IMG/VR virus record: IMGVR_UViG_3300017991_000052
DNA from: a virus
Length of the DNA: 64,000 bases
Strand: one strand, 5' to 3'
Under the pieces are notes generated by a model that saw only the letters and a list, made by a program, of their open reading frames with translations, was not told the origin of the DNA and did not search any database. Position 1 is the stretch's first letter; each line of letters opens with the position of its first letter. The position numbers and the translations under genes were made by a program. Shown in pieces: positions 28,262-57,929 of this stretch.

Positions 28262-28545
28262 TTCTCCTGCTCAGTAGATACTATGTGTCGCTCGTGCAGG
28301 AATCCCCGTTAGCCAATAGGTTAGCGGTGTAAAAAGATGTGGCAGAAGGTATTGCATTTTCTTAACATACTTGGGCCGTGACTGTCCGTTAAGAAAAGTC
28401 CTCGATCATCACGGTGCGATGGAGGTATAAGGTCACTATACAAGTCAACGGACAAGGCTCTGGCGGGTTAAGGCCTACTTAGTGGTAATAAAGTCCCGAT
28501 GGGTAGCGAGTGGTTGAAAATCTTGTCAAATCCTTATCATCTTTA
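28262..28545 (+). ncRNA. Unidentified structured RNA candidate (~285 nt) preceding tRNA array
   Basis: GC-rich non-coding stretch with several stems (see findings). Confidence 0.55.
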
Positions 28546-28546
28546 A

Positions 28547-34182: not shown

Positions 34183-34505
34183 GTTTAAAGTAAAGGAGGT
34201 GACATGAATGAGGTCAACTTTGACAGATGAGCAAGTTAAGACTGTGATGAAATTGAAGGACACGACGAGTGCTGCAGAAATTTCTCGCAGGATTGGTGCC
34301 CCAGCTCATAAGATTCGTTACTTCCTATGGAAGAGTAATCCCCCGCGTAAACGGCTTATGAACAAAGGACCAAGAATTATTACATCTAAGTCTAAACCGC
34401 AGAAAGAAGTCATAACTCTTACTGTGAATGGATTTGATGTAAAAGGCAAAGTAAAACACTTTGCTGCTCTTTTGAGCAAGTAGTTTTTATTATTCATTAG
34501 ATCAA

Positions 34506-34535
34506 GTAGCTGGAATGCAATAGTGTTCCAGCTAC
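34506..34535 (+). terminator. Stem-loop
   Basis: GTAGCTGGAATGC-AATA-GTGTTCCAGCTAC. Confidence 0.6.
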
Positions 34536-36967: not shown

Positions 36968-37159
36968 ATATTTATGTGTAAAAGAAAAATATGGTTATCG
37001 CCATGTCCAGGAGTCGGAATGAAGGCCGTTATATTAAAGAAGAGATTTGGCTTTTATAAAATTTTATATAAAGATCTTGATAGAAAATGTAGAATTGAAT
37101 GGTGTCCGTCTTATTATGCTGGAGAAAGCATAATTGAGAGAGAATAAATTGATTTATAA

Positions 37160-37266
37160 GGCGGGAGAGGCTGAAAAGCTGTGAATTATAGTCGGGTATC
37201 ACAGGGACTCGTTAACTTATGTACACGTCTGGCTGCTACTATAAGCTGAAGGCCAGCGCTCCCGCT
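37160..37266 (+). ncRNA. Unidentified ~105-nt structured RNA with potential kissing loops
   Basis: GCGGGAG/CTCCCGC closing stem; CTGTGA/TCACAG; CTGGC/GCCAG; loops TTATAGT and ACTATAA complementary. Confidence 0.55.
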
Positions 37267-38247
37267 GATCTTAAAGGAGATAAATAATGAATAAAAAAAT
37301 AGAAGAACTTATAAAATTAACTAAAGAAAATCCAGATATGGAAATAACTGTTATGGTTGAAACTGAAGTTTGTCATGATAATAGTTTTGCATATTGGAGA
37401 GGTATTATTGCAAGAATAGAAATAGATACAATATGGCAACCAGATGAAACAACTTTTATTGGGGATGAAGAAATAACAGATGAAATTTATAATAATATTT
37501 GTGATGATTTACCAGATGATTTAACAGATGATGAGAGACAACGGTTTATAGAAAAAGAATATAAAGATTATGTTAAAAAAGGAGAAATAAAGAAGCATAT
37601 AATAATTTATATTGAGCCATAAAAATAAAAAGGAGGAAAATAATGCAATTAATTAGATTTGGGATTATTATTACTTTTATTGTTAGTATGCTTTTGACAA
37701 GTTATTTTGCAATGATTAATGATAAAAGATTAACTAAATTATTTATGTTAATTATGCTTGTTTCATGGGGTGCATCTTATATATGGGTGGTGAACTAATG
37801 ATAAAATCTTTTAAAGAAAGAATAGATCTTACAAGTAAAATAAAAAGTCAAAAAATAAAAGAAGCTTTATTACTTGGATTTTCAAAAGCGATTGATAGGG
37901 CACTTGAAGAAAAAGATCTTAAAACTCTTGAAATGATTGCTGGTGTTGTTGAATCTTTTGAAGAAATGAATAAGCATTAAAATGTTTAAAAAAATTAAAC
38001 AAAAAATAAAAGATATTTATGAAGCTTATATTATAGGCAAATATGTACGAATAGGTTGTGAATTTGGAGATATGTATAGTTATTCATATTTAGGAGATGC
38101 TATAGGATATGATATGTATCATGATTCATGGAAACATTTAGAAGAAAAAATTATAAAAATGGGGTATAAACCCTATACTTTAAAACAATTTGTAAAAGCT
38201 GGTGGTTATGGGCAGCCATTGCCATCATTTCAAAAAGAAAGAAGAAA

Positions 38248-41233: not shown

Positions 41234-41235
41234 TA

Positions 41236-41264
41236 TTTACAATTTAATGAAGTTGTGTTATAAT
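41236..41264 (+). promoter_or_regulatory. Sigma70-like promoter, extended -10
   Basis: TTTACA-N17(TG)-TATAAT. Confidence 0.7.
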
Positions 41265-41352
41265 GATTTCAGTACATTGAAAAGCTAAAAGAAAGTTTTA
41301 CCGTCATGGAGACGATCGCAATAGCGATCGTCTCTAGTTAAGCATAACGAGC

Positions 41353-41400
41353 AAAAAGCAGTTATTAAATCTTACGGGATTTGGTAGCTGCTTTTTTTTT
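41353..41400 (+). terminator. Intrinsic terminator in leader of sigma-like gene
   Basis: AGCAGTTATTAAATCT-TACG-GGATTTGGTAGCTGCT followed by T-run. Confidence 0.7.
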
Positions 41401-41438
41401 GCATTTAGGGGGAGAAATGAGGGTAATCTACGTGAGAA

Positions 41439-49658: not shown

Positions 49659-52600
49659 GAAATAAGGGGGCGCAGCTATGCATATTAGTAAAAATGATAT
49701 TGAATTATTACGCGAAGAATATGAGAGAGAAAAGAATATATTAGAACAAAGAGAATCTCTTAATAGAGAATTATATGATCTAGAAAAGATTAGATCTTTT
49801 AATCCCCTATCTGAAAATGCTTCTTATTTATATGCTGATAATAATACTGGGGTAGATGAGAATGCATGGAGAAATTTAAGAGAAGAATTAGAGAGATATC
49901 GACAAGATAATCAAGTAACTCCGTGGCGATCCCCAACAGATGTACCTTATAATCCTTATACTCCCCAAACTCCAGTAACCCCATGGGAAGAAGGTTATGG
50001 ACGAACAGTAATAACAAAATCAACAGATGAATTAATATTAGAAGAGCTTGCATCTATTAGAAAATTATTAGAAAAAATCGCTGAAGGATTTGATGTAAAA
50101 ATAAGAGATGAATCATTATGAGTTCAAATGATATTGGGGAATATATGCTTGCAAATAATAGTAGTGATATAACTATTAATCTCCCTTATGATCCTGAGAT
50201 AAATAATTTAAGAGTTAATTATATGCAAACACCACCGCAAAATGGGAATTTGCATTATAATGAAAGTAATGGACAAATGGGAGTATGGACGGGACAAGAT
50301 TGGCAGCCATTAGAAAGTAATGGAAGTAGTGGAGGAACAACTAGTTTTACTTTATGGTCAGAATACGATGAGATCAAAAAAGAGATACAAGAATTAAAAT
50401 CTATGTTGAAGCAGGTGTTAGATCAGTGCGGCGTAATAATAAAGGACGAGTCCCTGTAAAAAGAAGACGTAAGATCTGGGTAGGATGGTGGGTCTTATTT
50501 TGGTCAATCTTTTTTACTATATTAATATTAATAATAATAAATGTCTTAACTAGTACATTAGTGATGACAATAAGAAAACATTATGTATTGAATATAACGA
50601 CTGAATCAGAATCTTCTTTATTGGCGATACATGGGCGCATCGAAAAATTATCAATACATCAAATAGAATTACAAAATCAAATAACTAAATTACAAAGAAG
50701 AACTTATTATTTAGAAAGAAAAGTAAAAGATTATGAAAAAAGGTAGAATATATAGTGTAGATTCAGATGCTGATCTAATTATCTTTCAATTCGATAAAAT
50801 AGATGTACATACATTAGAATCTTTTAAGATAGCATTAAGAGCGATTATTCCTGAAAGGTTAAAGAACAAATTACTTTTTTTAGCTAATACAAAGTTTAAT
50901 TTATATCAGTTTAAAGAAGGAAAGTTTTTTAACGAAAGTTTATGAGATATATAGAAAAATATTCAAGTCATATACCAATTGATGGAGTAACCCTTAGAGA
51001 TATAAGACGGATGATAAGAGATGCGCGTAGAGAAGAGATAGATCGTTCTAAATTAGTATTTTGTTTAGGGTATGAACTAGAAGAAAGTATATCAGCATTG
51101 TTTGGATCTGGAACATTTACACAAAAACAATTAGGGATCCCAGAGCCGCCATTGCCTTATCAAGTTGGGGCAATATGGGGAATAGCAGTAACTCAACCTC
51201 CCAATATAGATAATGATACTGTACTATTAACTAAATTAGAAGATTATTTAAGTGTCTACGGCAGTGAAAGTGTGCCTGATGAGAGTATATAATGAACGAA
51301 TTAAGTATAATGTATGGATGGGGGATCATCGAGAACAGATGTATTGGGAGAACCTTCCTAAAAAAGAAAAGTTATGGAGATGTTTTATTAACAGACTTCC
51401 AAAACATTCATTCCCTGATCTATCAATTTTAGAATTATTAATATTGGTACAAAGTTTAGAAGATCTAGATGAGCATATGGAATGGAAAGATATAGAAAAG
51501 CGAAAGGAGGAAAGGTATGACTCAAAAGCCATCGAAAGAAGAAGCAATAGGGAAAGCATTAGCGGCACTAGTTAATCTTTTTATAATATCTCCATTGTTA
51601 TTTATGTGGTTATACAACATGATATTAGTCCCTAAATTTAGCTTACCAAGATTCAGTTATTTAGAGTCTATGGGGCTCATTTTTATTTTCAGAACAATAC
51701 TTAAATAAAAGTTCAAAAATAGGGTAATAATTATATAAGTAGAAGAGGAGTGAAAGTAATGTCAGAAGCAAATATTGACATGCCTATCGAAAGACTTAGG
51801 CGTGCTGTAGTGAATCCAAGAAAGAAATTTTCAATTAGTATTGAACAAATGAGTGGTGGATTTTTAGTAATAAGTAAGTATGATAAGAAAAGATTTTGTA
51901 AGAATTTTACTGAAATAGTTAATGCAGTTAATGAAAGCTTGAGAGAATATTTTAAAAGTGAAGAGATCAAAGAAGGTGAAAGTATATGAGTTATAGTGAA
52001 CCAATGATGGATGAAGTGAGGGAAGCGGAACCAATGGAGCCAAGATGGAATACAGCTAGCGCATTCCCAGAAGATCGACCTAACTATAATAATTTTAATA
52101 TAAGAATAGAAAAAATAGAGAACGGATATTTATTAAATCCAAATTCTCACGATAGAGAATATTTTAATTCATTAGATACTCTATTTGAAGAAGCAAAATC
52201 GCGAGCAATAAATTCTTTTTTAAGAATCAACGATGGGTAGAACAGCAAGAAGAATGCATTTAGCTGATACAAGAGTTGAAGCTTCATCTGCACAACTTGC
52301 ATATATTGATTCAAATTTATTTACTAATGGGGATCTCAGTATTGTTAGTGATAATAATTTTTCTAGTAATTTAACTATTGATGCAGATGTCCTTATTAAA
52401 GGAAAAAAGCTTGATGATTATATATTAGAAGTTGTAAAGGAACATATGAAAGATTTATGTTTTACCAACATTTTGGACGAGAGCATTTAAATTATAGTGT
52501 TTTTACAGAGCTTGGAGAATGGCAAATTGGTAAAACAAAAGTCTTTCAAGATGTATATGATTGCTCGTTAACATATGAATTCGAATTTATATTAAATAAT

Positions 52601-52835
52601 ATAGATTTGAAGGTAAAAAATAGTGGTAATAGTTATAAATATGTAGGAAGAATGAAGGTAAATGAGGCTGATGTCATTACTTCCGACCGAAATCTTTCGG
52701 CTATAATAAGTGATACATTTTTAATGAATATGTATAAATTTAAGGAAGATATAGAAAACCAGGTATTTTATATAAAGAGTGATATGGTTTTCGAAAATAA
52801 ATTAAAAGAATACGGATTATTTATTGAAAGTATTT

Positions 52836-53797
52836 AGCCGAGGGAAAATTGAGACTCGACGGAGTTTCGTAGCTGTTGACGGGCAGCGATAAGGGTGTTA
52901 GCCAGACACTTGGGGAAAGTAAGTCATCTTGTGTTTTAAGCAAGAGATTTATTTTAGCGGAGTGAGAATATATGAGTTCTCGCGTGTAGGCAATACTTAA
53001 TTTTGACAATTTAATAACAACGGCTTGAGATCGCGGAGTGCAGACTCAATGTGATCAAATCCGCAGAACTGAAACTAATGTGGACAAGCTAGAGCCTCTA
53101 ACTAGGAAGAGGACAAAGTGTTTGGTAGTTTCGCTATAGAAAACTACCTCTCACTTAATGAGGTGCTTATCTACCATGTGTAGATAGAGCTTCAGACGAC
53201 TTTATTAGTGTGAAAGAATTTTTGCTAATTATAGATGCATTAATTCTTCAAATTAGATGAAGATGTCTGCAAAAGAGCTTAGGTTTCAATGAGCCCAGGT
53301 GCGATATAAAAGTTCAACTTATTGTCTTTATATAAAGTACAATTAGATTAACTGCTTAAATAGGGACGCCTAGCCTGTACTAATAATATCTTAATATGTT
53401 ATGGATTTAACCCTCCTGTCTGGGTAGCGAGGTTGGTAAGGGATCGGTCATAACATTTTGCGCTATCACGAAGTTTGACAATAACTAGTGACTGAACAAC
53501 TCGCTATGCAGGTGTAAGGTACATTTTGGACCATCGCCCTTGAGGTAACTCTTGGGAGAGAGATGGTTACCCAGGCCGATCCGGTGAGGGAAAAACAAAG
53601 TGGTTCCGTGGCCAATAGTAGCAATACTACGATTTTGACATTTGGATGATGTTGACAATTTAGATTACTACTGCAGACGGCCATCAAGTTGAAGGACCAT
53701 GTACTTGTACGTCTTGCTTGACCTTCGGATTCAATGGGGAGGAAGCTTTCTGTTGAAAAGGGGGGAATGGCGGTATGAGTATAATTCTTTCCTTTTT
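52836..53797 (+). ncRNA. Large (~900-950 nt) structured non-coding RNA candidate
   Basis: No credible ORF, raised GC, >12 nested hairpins including GNRA loops (see findings); boundaries approximate. Confidence 0.7.
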
Positions 53798-53893
53798 ATT
53801 GTCGAACTCGTACTTAAAATGAGTACAAACGTACTCAATATGAGAACATTGATATATAGGCCACCAGGAGAATATATTCTAGGAGGTTTTACC

Positions 53894-54346
53894 ATGATAA
53901 GGGATTTAGTTCCATTCAATAATGGAAGCTTATTTAATGAGTTCCAGAACGAATTCGCAAAAATGGAGAAACTGATGAATAATATATTCTCAGATTCTGG
54001 TTCGTTCTTAGGAGTAGGGAAAGCAACATTCCCAAAGTATAATCTTATCGAGACAGATAATGATTATGTAATTGAAGTTGCGGCAGCTGGGTTAGGTAAA
54101 GAAGATCTTGAAGTAAGAGTTGATGATAATAAGTTAGTTATTCGAGGCAAGAAAAAATCTAAATATGATAATGCAAAATATCATATTAGAGAGTTAGCAA
54201 GTCGATCATTTGAGAAGAGAATTAATCTTCCATCGATCATTGACAAAGACAAGATCAAAGCAAAATTTGAGGAAGGTATCTTAGAGATAAATCTTCCAAA
54301 GGCAGAGAAAAATGAAGGGTCAGTTAGGCAAGTAACAATTAAGTAA
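53894..54346 (+). CDS. Small heat-shock protein (Hsp20/alpha-crystallin)
   Basis: FPKYNLIET, AAAGLGKEDL, FEKRINLP, AKFEEGILEINLPK; ATG after AGGAGG. Confidence 0.92.
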   Translation: MIRDLVPFNNGSLFNEFQNEFAKMEKLMNNIFSDSGSFLGVGKATFPKYNLIETDNDYVIEVAAAGLGKEDLEVRVDDNKLVIRGKKKSKYDNAKYHIRELASRSFEKRINLPSIIDKDKIKAKFEEGILEINLPKAEKNEGSVRQVTIK

Positions 54347-55171
54347 AAAGTTTACTCCTGGTGGTTTATTGTAAAAGAGAAGAAAATTGAGGTGAAAAAG
54401 TGAATCAAGAACTGACGTTCGAAGATTGGTATGATGAAGTAATTGCAATTGCAAGTTCCTTTGATTGGGACGATTATATGATACAAGAGAATTTACCAGA
54501 AGAAGAGCTAGCAATCATGTACGAACAAGGTTTCTCGCCAGAGAGAGTATTTTTGGACGAACTACGGAATCATATTTAATTGAGAGGTAACAATGACAGC
54601 ATTATTGGATGAGGAAAAAGCATTTTATATTAGAAATGGCATATCTGTCGGGGCTTTAGAAGATATGAGAAAATCATTTTATTTAGATAACATCTCTAAT
54701 CCTGACAGTTCAAAAACAAACGATGATCTTGAAGTTGAATGGTTAAAAGAAGAAAGTGGGATAACAGATACAAGCAGTGCTGAAGATATATGGAGATTAT
54801 GGCTTGTACCAACTTATGGGTCTAAAGCTGTAGAAGATCTTAAATTATTATATTATCAAAATAATTAGGAGCAAGTAATGGGCAGAGCATTAAACAGAAA
54901 ATTAGAAAAGTCAGTACATCATAATTATTATACAAAAAAATATAAGAGTGACAAAGCACGAAAATTTGCAAGGAGTTTATTGATAACTCCTCCAGTTAAA
55001 AATGAGGAGCTTGCTATAAAACAATGACAGTAGAATACCTTCCCCCAATTCCGGTATTAACGGGAAAAGCGGCGAAAGAATTCGAGAGAAAAATGAAGCA
55101 AGCATCTAAAAGAAAAGCTAAGTTATCTTTTAATGATCTGAAATTATTGAAAGAGATGTTGCAGTATACAA

Positions 55172-55381
55172 ATGAAAAGAAAGATACTGACTAATATTAA
55201 TATAGATTATCATTGCAGAAAAGATGATAAATTTTATTCGATAAGGCCTGATATTCCAGTAATTGTGCCTGATTATGTATGTGATTATTTATTAAATAAT
55301 TATAGAAACAATATGATATTGCTGGAAAAAAATTTGCGGGATATAAAAATAAAAGAAGAAATATACAATCAGAGTTTATAA
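55172..55381 (+). CDS. Hypothetical; tag IYNQSL
   Basis: ends EEIYNQSL. Confidence 0.6.
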   Translation: MKRKILTNINIDYHCRKDDKFYSIRPDIPVIVPDYVCDYLLNNYRNNMILLEKNLRDIKIKEEIYNQSL

Positions 55382-57365
55382 ATGACCGAATTCAATACAA
55401 ATAAATTATATGATTACATAAAAGATTATTGTTTTGATGAATGTGTTTTTATGAAAAATTCTTCTAAGTATCATGAATGTGATAATAAAGATTGCCAATT
55501 ATGGGCTTTTCTACAATATGTTAATAAAAGAGAAGGGGGAAGTAAATGAGAAGCATGCAAGAAGTACAACTTGAGCGACATAAAATTGATATGGAAATTG
55601 GTGCAATATTAGTAAGCTTAAATAAATTAAAGACAAGGAGATCAGAATTAGAACTTGAAGTTTTGCAGATTCAACAACAAATGATTACTGAAGCTGTAAA
55701 AAAACAAAAAGAAGGGACATCAGACAATGGACCTAAAGTTGATAAGAATTAAAATATTGCAAGATAAACAAGAAGAACTTTTAAAGAAGAAATTAGAGGT
55801 TGAAATTAATAGTCGTTTACAGGGTAAGTTAGAGATCTTTAAGAACCCTGAAATAAGTAATATTGATAAGCAATTAGCAATTATTGCAGAGATGTTAAAT
55901 GAAGTCCCGAAAAAGATCGAAAAATAATATTCAAAGATATGGTGTTTGTAGTTTATGTGGGAAGAGATTTATTACCGCTGAAATTGATTTGAACACGAAC
56001 ATAGTGACATTTATACGAAACTTTTGGAATCCCGAAATTTGTCCTAGTTGTAAGAGGAAGAGAAAATGAAAAACAACACCGCTGATCGAGATATAGAATG
56101 TCTATATTGTACTAGAAAACAAAAATGTACTTTTGCGAAGAGTATTAGTTTTTTAGAAAATGAACTAGGCTATGGGGTAGAATGCTGGCTTCGACAAGGG
56201 CCAGATGAGACATTTACTGGTTTTCATGAACTTAAAATATTTAGTGCGGCAGAAAGGGGGGTTTTAGTAAGGCTTCCGTACTGGCGTCACCAATATAATC
56301 CTCAAAGGGATTTAGTGATTGAACAAAACGCAGTAAATTAAAGTAAGGCGGTGTATAAGTGGTAGATTTTTCTAAAGCCCACTATTTAGTGGAAGGGTAT
56401 ATAGACCCTACCATGTTGAATATTAATTTAAGTGACATGGGGTTAAAAGAGACCGATTGGACTGTTAAATCAAGTCAATTAGATCATAATGAAGAAGAAG
56501 GATTTTATCGATTAGAGGTTATTTTACATAGTCAAAAGAGAGTAAAATTAGTTAATAATTTTAGTAATGAATATATATATGAAATTGGTGATGAAACAGA
56601 AAAAAAATATATATTGAATACAAAGAAGATGCCGACAGTAGATAATGTAGAACAATTTTCAAGAAAGATCGTGAATAGTGCGATCTTAGATTATAATAAG
56701 TATATTTGTAATGGAGGATAAAATGCAAAAAGTAATAGGAAGAGTGAAGTTTAATAATGAAATATTATTAGATGCTGGCGAAATGAAAGTTGATTTAAGA
56801 CAAAAAGCTGCTGAAGGTATATTTGAGATACACAAAAATTTTGTAGTAATCCCAAAAGAAAATAAAATCACTAAGTCAGATATTCATGTTCCCATGAGCA
56901 ATGTCTCATCGATACAGATAAATCAAGTATTAGAAGGAAAGGCGAATGAGCATTTATCAACTTAAAACTGATATTGTTAATAAGATCACAGAGAAATATA
57001 AAGGAAAATCTGAAGATCCAAATTTAGTTTCAGCTGTGAGATCAGACACGACAGCGCTATTAACAAATGCTCAAAAAAATGGTATAATAAGAACATTTGA
57101 AAATGTATATGTTCGAAAAACGAGTAGAGGAACAGTACAAATACGTGTGAGATTATATCCAAACTTCCTGGGGGCATTAGTAAAACTTGACTTCGAAGTA
57201 GGGATATAATGAATAATAATGAATTACAACCTTTAGATTTAGGTACTAAAAAAAGACTGGCGTTATTGGGAATAAGTAATGTTGGTGATAAGTTCGACGA
57301 AATGGTCGACTTTTGTAATGGTTTTATAAACAATTTTAAAAGAGCAGTTCAAGTAATGGAGGAAC

Positions 57366-57929
57366 ATGAAAGTGGTAGTGATAGTGGATTTGGAAGCAAC
57401 TTGTTGGGAAAACAAAAAGGAAACTTCCGAAGTAATTGAAATAGGAGCTATTAAAATTGACAAAGAAGGAAACAAAAAAGAGTTCCAAGCATTTGTCAGA
57501 CCTATTATTAATCCTATTCTCTCTGATTTCTGCAAACAGTTGACAGGAATAAATCAGAGTGATGTAGATAAGGCTGAAACATTTGATAAAGTGGCAGCGG
57601 ATTTTATAGAATTTGTTGGCACTAGTCGTGTATATAGCTGGGGTTATTATGATAAGAATCAATTAATGAAAGATTGTCATAGGAATAAGATTGCGTGGCA
57701 GTTCGATCATACAAGCTTAAAGCATGAGTTTGCTAAACTAAAAAAAATAAAACCATGCGGAATTATAGGAGCACTAAAAATGTTGGATATGAGCTTTGAA
57801 GGTGCACACCACAGAGGTATTGACGATGTTCGCAATATCTTTAAGGTGTACAAACGAATAAAGGAGAGTTTACCTTGGTATGCATATACCACCGTAAATA
57901 CTTTTGCGCCTATAGCTCAGTCAGGCTAG
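57366..57929 (+). CDS. DEDDh 3'-5' exonuclease (ERI-1/KapD-like)
   Basis: VDLEATC, EVIEIGA, LSDFCKQLTGI, HHRGIDD. Confidence 0.9.
   Translation: MKVVVIVDLEATCWENKKETSEVIEIGAIKIDKEGNKKEFQAFVRPIINPILSDFCKQLTGINQSDVDKAETFDKVAADFIEFVGTSRVYSWGYYDKNQLMKDCHRNKIAWQFDHTSLKHEFAKLKKIKPCGIIGALKMLDMSFEGAHHRGIDDVRNIFKVYKRIKESLPWYAYTTVNTFAPIAQSG

Follow-up and report, generated by a model that had tools for sequence, protein, structure and literature searches.

A candidate large structured non-coding RNA between a tagged small-gene array and hsp20 in an uncultured phage

The 64-kb stretch of DNA analysed here in its entirety (the window), from a low-GC (0.30), large, uncultured phage, probably specifies a large non-coding RNA on one strand, a candidate that remains unproven. 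The candidate lies on the + strand at 52838-53799, in an interval for which we directly observed an absence of coding signal, a raised GC content and an excess of folding specific to one strand. Its well-supported core measures ~0.45 kb at the 5’ end, and the whole could reach ~0.96 kb. We tentatively favor the reading that the region encodes a lineage-specific large structured RNA, which would belong to an undescribed family and resemble GOLLD and ROOL in kind only. To our knowledge, the very large non-coding RNAs of bacteria and phages fall into just a few known classes. If the favored reading is true, the region would supply a third, unrelated, kilobase-sized phage RNA besides GOLLD and ROOL, widening that set, and its chaperone, unfoldase and RNA-repair neighbors would be a new context for what such RNAs do. 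Its present value is that of a single-sequence candidate and a well-delimited target.

Locus, composition and coding potential

Every gene in the window lies on the + strand, and the encoded proteins include NrdD, a ClpC-type unfoldase, a CCA-adding enzyme, an RlaP-like protein, an M23 peptidase and a sigma-like protein. A cmscan search of the window with Rfam 15, at the gathering score, identified 24 tRNA genes. The gap without genes between a 126-aa ORF and hsp20 extends for 1056 nt (52838-53893), far longer than the runner-up ORF-free gap of 285 nt; an earlier reading of the DNA made from its letters (the sequence-only reading) had described the region as the longest gene-free stretch in the window, and no other gap exceeds 285 nt. 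That reading had also placed the region at the close of an array of tagged genes. The upstream 126-aa ORF (52457-52837, + strand) is indeed the final gene of the small C-terminally tagged array and ends in ...FIESI, and a regular expression found the shared C-terminal tag on 17 ORFs of the array.

The downstream neighbor is an Hsp20/alpha-crystallin gene of 150 aa (53894-54346, + strand; Pfam PF00011, E 2e-24) with a Shine-Dalgarno (SD) sequence, AGGAGG, at 53881-86. Gene callers differ on its start, placing it at either 53840 (168 aa) or 53894 (150 aa). Of these two, only the ATG at 53894 is preceded by the Shine-Dalgarno sequence, and the 150-aa product is called in several assemblies; an ORF at 53699-54346 is merely an in-frame upstream extension of hsp20, whose true start is the ATG at 53894. 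Just downstream of hsp20, position 54818 is the exact contig end in two independent assemblies, which suggests strain heterogeneity or a repeat at that point.

The genes around the candidate RNA form an accessory block that combines tRNA arrays and RNA-repair genes (the CCA enzyme, RlaP and pieces of RtcB) with genes for protein quality control (ClpC, Hsp20 and the tagged proteins). The closest tRNA cluster is not adjacent, as it begins at 57905, 4.1 kb downstream of the candidate. At 0.41, the GC content of the 52838-53893 gap is intermediate between that of coding DNA (0.29) and that of the tRNAs (0.55), confirming the earlier impression that the region is richer in GC than its flanks. Ordinary promoter gaps in the window have a GC content of 0.22-0.33, and the remaining GC-rich gaps also appear RNA-like. 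The 24 tRNA genes and these other RNA-like gaps together indicate that the phage carries many RNA genes.

No long ORF was found in the region under genetic codes 11 or 4, or with TAG or TAA read as Q, and under code 11 no ORF across it exceeded 110 codons. Stop-to-stop fragments from all frames had no match above noise in Pfam and PHROGs (E<=1), and the small ORFs with a Shine-Dalgarno sequence in the region included no convincing case. A decayed gene, an identity that the sequence-only reading had named as speaking against an RNA, finds no support, and neither does a recoded one: across Pfam, PHROGs and the four genetic codes, the frames match only noise and the alternative codes open no long ORF.

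Strand-specific folding and predicted domains

We compared the predicted folding energy of 52836-53797 (962 nt) with that of dinucleotide shuffles. The + strand folded to -293.9 kcal/mol, against -251 +/- 10 kcal/mol for its shuffles (z -4.3; 0/20 shuffles), a gain of 43 kcal/mol for the region as a whole, whereas the - strand gave a z of only -0.8. For comparison, we folded seven coding windows of 962 nt from this phage as controls; each was set against its own shuffles, and the differences ran from +5 to -18 kcal/mol. Since no control gained more than 18 kcal/mol, the excess of 43 kcal/mol is an outlier. A strand-specific folding signal above chance is thus confirmed, in agreement with the preference for the + strand that had been proposed from G-U pairs and loops.

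Two stretches, 52850-53275 and 53700-53800, account for most of the excess structure. When each sub-domain was compared with 200 shuffles, the strongest signal came from 52888-53000 (z -5.75 on the + strand, 0/200 shuffles; -1.64 on the - strand), followed by 53160-53275, which scored on both strands (z -4.32 on + and -3.54 on -), 53026-53160 (z -3.87 on + versus -1.03 on -), and the 3’ hairpins at 53725-53806 (z -2.26 on + versus +0.75 on -). The centre, at ~53270-53480, folds no better than random. Some coding windows reach a local z near -4 when few shuffles are used, and a GC-corrected scan of 2556 windows ranked the best domains of the region within the top ~1%, with a few other phage elements ahead of them.

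We set the predicted limits of the candidate (52838-53799, + strand; ORF-free, GC 0.41, z -4.3 on + and -0.8 on -) at the stop codon of the upstream ORF and at a terminator-like hairpin on the 3’ side. From the 5’ limit, two short hairpins, GAGACUC/GAGUUUC and GCUGUU/GGCAGC (52851-52887, + strand; pair probabilities 0.85 and 0.88), precede a G-U-rich three-way junction at 52893-52998 (+ strand). With a dG of -38.6 kcal/mol and a minimum free energy (MFE) structure that accounts for 42% of the ensemble, the junction is the best-defined element of the candidate as modeled. The AU-rich linker that follows is predicted to be single-stranded and holds the first copy of the UUGACAAU motif (53003-53010, + strand). 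Six hairpins then occupy 53029-53267 of the + strand (53029-56, 53060-84, 53095-112, 53116-56, 53160-93 and 53195-267), with pair probabilities of 0.84-1.00. The AU-rich centre beyond them (53268-53395, + strand) is without excess structure, at local z values of +0.6 to +1.4, and could either link two parts of one RNA or mark where one RNA gives way to another.

On the 3’ side of the centre, a hairpin formed by AUGUUAUG and CAUAACAU (53396-53467, + strand; local z -0.09) encloses the sequence CCUCCU at 53412-17. A GC-rich 3’ domain follows (53529-53673, + strand; z -2.06, GC 0.44-0.45), consisting of a GUAA-capped hairpin at 53529-68 and a long hairpin at 53616-73 that bears a GCAA loop and two UUGACA motifs. 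A 12-bp hairpin, UUCAAUGGGGAG-GAAG-CUUUCUGUUGAA, is predicted on the + strand only (53730-53757; pair probability 0.98). The terminator-like hairpin at 53755-53799 (+ strand; dG -13.7 kcal/mol, z -2.4) has a G-U-rich purine/pyrimidine stem and a U-run, and is omitted by a consensus terminator scan because its loop is longer than 8 nt.

All of the stems listed in the sequence-only reading are present: AGCCG (52836) with CGGCT (53021), GTGAGAAT/GTTCTCGC (52962-52983), GATCGC..GAGT-GCAG-ACTC..GTGATC (53029-53056), GGTAGT/ACTACC (53124-53148), TATCTAC/GTAGATA (53168-53186), ATGTTATG/CATAACAT (53396-53456), ACCATC..GUAA..GATGGT (53530-53567), TAGTA-GCAA-TACTA (53616-53629), and the terminal purine/pyrimidine hairpin with its U-run (53755-53797). 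Most of them have partition-function pair probabilities of 0.85-0.99. The GNRA loops described there hold for GUAA and GCAA but not for GCAG, which is not a GNRA sequence.

Long-range closure of the molecule depends on the stretch that is folded. The helix 52838-44/53722-28, which closes the fold of the whole region, falls to a pair probability below 0.7 once flanks are included, and a fold of 52830-53900 contains an 11-bp helix at 53473-83/53797-807. Because the long-range closing helices hold up poorly in these models and the ~200 nt in the middle are no more structured than expected, the region may or may not be a single molecule of ~0.96 kb. An internal tandem duplication of two ~470-nt halves is not significant, a similarity of the sequence around 53058-53085 to group I P4/Q elements is unsupported by the Rfam model, and a CsrA-type sponge finds no support in the number of GGA triplets, which by a hand estimate only is about that expected from composition.

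Known families, relatives and alternative readings

We searched the whole window against Rfam 15 with cmscan, a check that the sequence-only reading had proposed, and at the gathering score recovered tRNAs only; no credible family and no standard intron emerged. Lowering the threshold to E<=10 for 52600-54000 added only sub-threshold noise, namely a plant snoRNA, a plastid UTR and a fly lncRNA (E 0.2-8). The covariance models of GOLLD (RF01998) and ROOL (RF03087) had no match at the gathering score or at E<=10, and there was none to the models of OLE, HEARO, raiA and the other large bacterial RNAs of Rfam 15. As far as covariance models see, RNase P, pieces of rRNA, riboswitches and thermometers are likewise excluded. 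Group I and group II introns had no model match at E<=10, and neither neighboring gene is split: the upstream ORF has its own stop and a tag-like tail and Hsp20 has its own Shine-Dalgarno sequence and a full N-terminus, so there is no split host gene. ARAGORN found no tmRNA or tRNA-like element in 52000-57900. The earlier statement that tmRNA ends, a group II domain V and a split gene are all missing is thus upheld by ARAGORN, Rfam and the complete neighbors. A structured + strand non-coding RNA that is not a gene, intron or tmRNA fits these tests, whereas the membership in GOLLD or ROOL that had been suggested for it finds no covariance model match at E<=10.

The likeness to these two classes is one of kind. 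GOLLD RNAs, many of whose members exceed 800 nt, are elaborately folded, are encoded by phages and prophages, frequently close to tRNA islands, and have no known function; ROOL is likewise an ornate RNA of phages and prophages that lies near tRNA islands, and no protein is known to partner it; and both were recently shown to form RNA-only cages of unknown purpose (bioRxiv 10.1101/2024.12.08.627333). Our candidate is similar to GOLLD in size and lies in a large phage with 24 tRNA genes within these 64 kb, but its nearest tRNA is 4.1 kb off and, unlike GOLLD, it is so far a single sequence. ROOL is ~580 nt in length, and the candidate may be longer. It does have palindromic loops, such as CUAUAG and AUGCAU, at a frequency that by a rough hand estimate is no more than chance.

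The locus also occurs in six further assemblies (ENA, JGI and Logan), all of which were 100% identical across the region, with one SNP per ~12 kb overall; because they are identical, they provide no covariation information. A blastn search against INPHARED phages and PLSDB plasmids gave no match to the region. In IMG/VR, no relative was found for the 126-aa ORF, Hsp20 or the sigma-like protein, apart from one false match inside a tape-measure gene, and an index of 5.8 billion proteins queried with Hsp20, the NTP-transferase and RNase T held no syntenic relative. The matches listed by an exhaustive HMMER search with ClpC were only 41-55% identical, and one that was inspected lay on contigs too short to reach the RNA region. 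The ClpC N-domain had no relative among GTDB genomes, and a scan of JGI metagenomes with the same domain yielded one true relative; a distant match inspected in the JGI scan proved to be a cellular mcsB-clpC locus. Scans with RNA patterns gave 2 and 22 chance matches, or none, and nhmmer detected no homologue in 700 kb of retrieved loci. An 18-nt match in one fragment from a relative falls within a gene that runs on the other strand. A covariance model of 52888-53000, run against 35 large IMG/VR phages and the loci of the relative, recovered only itself. As no homologue was found in INPHARED, PLSDB, IMG/VR, JGI contigs or GTDB, there is no covariation.

The true relative, the 178-kb JGI contig Ga0315289_10000055, is syntenic with 0.7-26.7 kb of the window, with identities of 67% for ClpC, 65% for E1, 61% for Ubl and 58-75% for NrdD, the last of which is interrupted by inteins in the relative. 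One of its ORFs carries the same C-terminal tag, GEIKDESI (ending at ~7729 of the examined fragment). The interval from ClpC to RNase T measures 5.6 kb in the relative, against 30.6 kb here, and on the gene map of this syntenic interval the relative has no gap larger than ~220 nt; an accessory block of ~25-30 kb between ClpC and RNase T is absent from it. The difference in interval length therefore places the candidate RNA in an accessory block specific to this lineage, which it shares with tRNAs, RNA-repair genes, the tagged array and Hsp20.

Under the favored reading of a single large RNA, transcription would run rightward, either jointly with the array of tagged small genes or as read-through out of it. 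Promoters elsewhere in the phage are canonical (TTGACA/TTTACA-N17-TATAAT), and because a promoter scan found none of this type directly upstream of the region, we infer transcription from the tagged-gene operon; where the RNA ends, its being one molecule and its having a partner are inferred as well. The transcript would end at the G-U-rich hairpin and U-run of 53755-53799, and would act as an RNA rather than through a product, perhaps serving in infected cells as a stable scaffold or decoy. A bolder proposal, which we regard as doubtful, is that the region would found a new family of ornate ~1-kb phage RNAs that have no sequence relationship with GOLLD and ROOL. Such an RNA would be made alongside a proteostasis module (dozens of tagged small proteins, ClpC and Hsp20) and an RNA-repair and tRNA module, and would fold by itself into a scaffold or cage that serves a partner from either module.

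The position of the region directly before hsp20 raises the alternative, in our estimate an unlikely one, that the region is a long 5’ leader acting in cis on the hsp20 mRNA, such as a thermosensor or translational switch. Here, CCUCCU (53412-17) and UGUUAUGG (53397-404) would pair with the hsp20 Shine-Dalgarno sequence and start codon (53881-99), in competition with the local hairpin AUGUUAUG/CAUAACAU, and a partition function over 52830-53900 does give the helices 53397-53417/53881-53899 a probability of 0.87-0.89. RNA thermometers are well established upstream of small heat-shock genes, and hsp20 lacks a convincing promoter of its own: the sole + strand candidate, TTGATA-18-TATATT at 53849-78, would start transcription within the Shine-Dalgarno sequence. 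Like the ROSE and FourU thermometers, the candidate sits directly upstream of an Hsp20 gene and has a perfect anti-SD hexamer. It is, however, ten times longer than they are, with ~470 nt between its anti-SD and the SD, whereas known thermometers are under ~150 nt and adjoin the Shine-Dalgarno sequence; nor does it match any thermometer in Rfam. A duplex energy as low as the -18.5 kcal/mol seen here also arises in 5% of other 963-nt windows and in 30% of composition-matched shuffles, which makes the SD pairing statistically indistinguishable from chance and leaves the leader as a rival reading. Moreover, the terminator-like hairpin at 53755-99 stands between the structured region and hsp20, and the short leader proximal to hsp20 has a z of +0.14.

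Equally improbable to us is a reading in which RNA plays no part and the GC content and hairpins are incidental, the region being regulatory DNA with repeated operator-like TTGACAAT sites, an origin, or a recently acquired or decayed foreign fragment. It draws on four TTGACAWT copies that share the + strand within 660 nt (53003-53010, 53475-53482, 53635-53642, the last of these reading UUGACAUU, and 53652-53659); 3 of the 7 exact copies of TTGACAAT in the window, counted on both strands of the 64 kb, fall on one strand of this region, and two TTGACAWT copies share a longer similarity, GCAATACT-N2-3-ATTTTGACAWTT. The location in an accessory block of ~30 kb that separates ClpC from RNase T here but not in the relative, and the absence of conservation evidence, would also suit such an element. 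Yet the motifs are not palindromic, and neither a promoter scan nor inspection by eye found a -10 box after any copy, which argues against their serving as sigma-70 promoters. By eye, CtsR, CIRCE and HAIR operators and DnaA boxes show only partial resemblance with the wrong spacing. The cumulative GC skew has no turn and the flanking genes share one orientation, so the region bears no signature of a replication origin. Fragments of its frames match no protein family, and a strand-specific excess of folding is not expected of a DNA element or of random foreign DNA.

Least probable of all, in our judgment, is a division into several shorter elements (a ~430-nt 5’ RNA or 3’ UTR of the tagged operon at 52838-53270, a GC-rich 3’ element at 53480-53800, and a spacer), a reading encouraged by the random-like AU-rich gap that parts the structured stretches 52850-53275 and 53700-53800, by the weakening of the closing helix 52838-44/53722-28 (<0.7) when flanks are included and by the presence of other short RNA-like units in the phage, but opposed by the rise in GC and the ORF-free state, which continue unbroken over the whole kilobase, and by the failure of our scans to find a canonical promoter or terminator inside the region that would separate its parts.

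Other RNA-like intervals in the window

Four further intervals drew our attention in the course of the analysis. Between the M23 peptidase and the sigma-like gene, 41234-41438 (folding z -8.2) contains a TTTACA-N17-TATAAT promoter followed by a perfect 13-bp hairpin, GGAGACGATCGC-AATA-GCGATCGTCTC, and by a second long hairpin with a T9 run; it has the appearance of either an independent small RNA gene or a strong terminator/attenuator unit. Directly before a tRNA array lies a 285-nt gene-free stretch with a GC content of 0.45 (28262-28546), in which Rfam sees no tRNA. The 139-nt gap at 37148-37286 also has a GC content of 0.45 and is closed by the stem GGCGGGAG...CUCCCGCU; with a z of only -1.5, it is a weak small-RNA candidate. 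Finally, 34380-34520 is among the most strongly folded parts of the window (GC-corrected residual -5.5 sd; z -3.2 on the + strand and -1.2 on the - strand), overlapping the 3’-terminal part of a 91-aa ORF as well as the gap before the next ORF, upstream of a fragmented rtcB.
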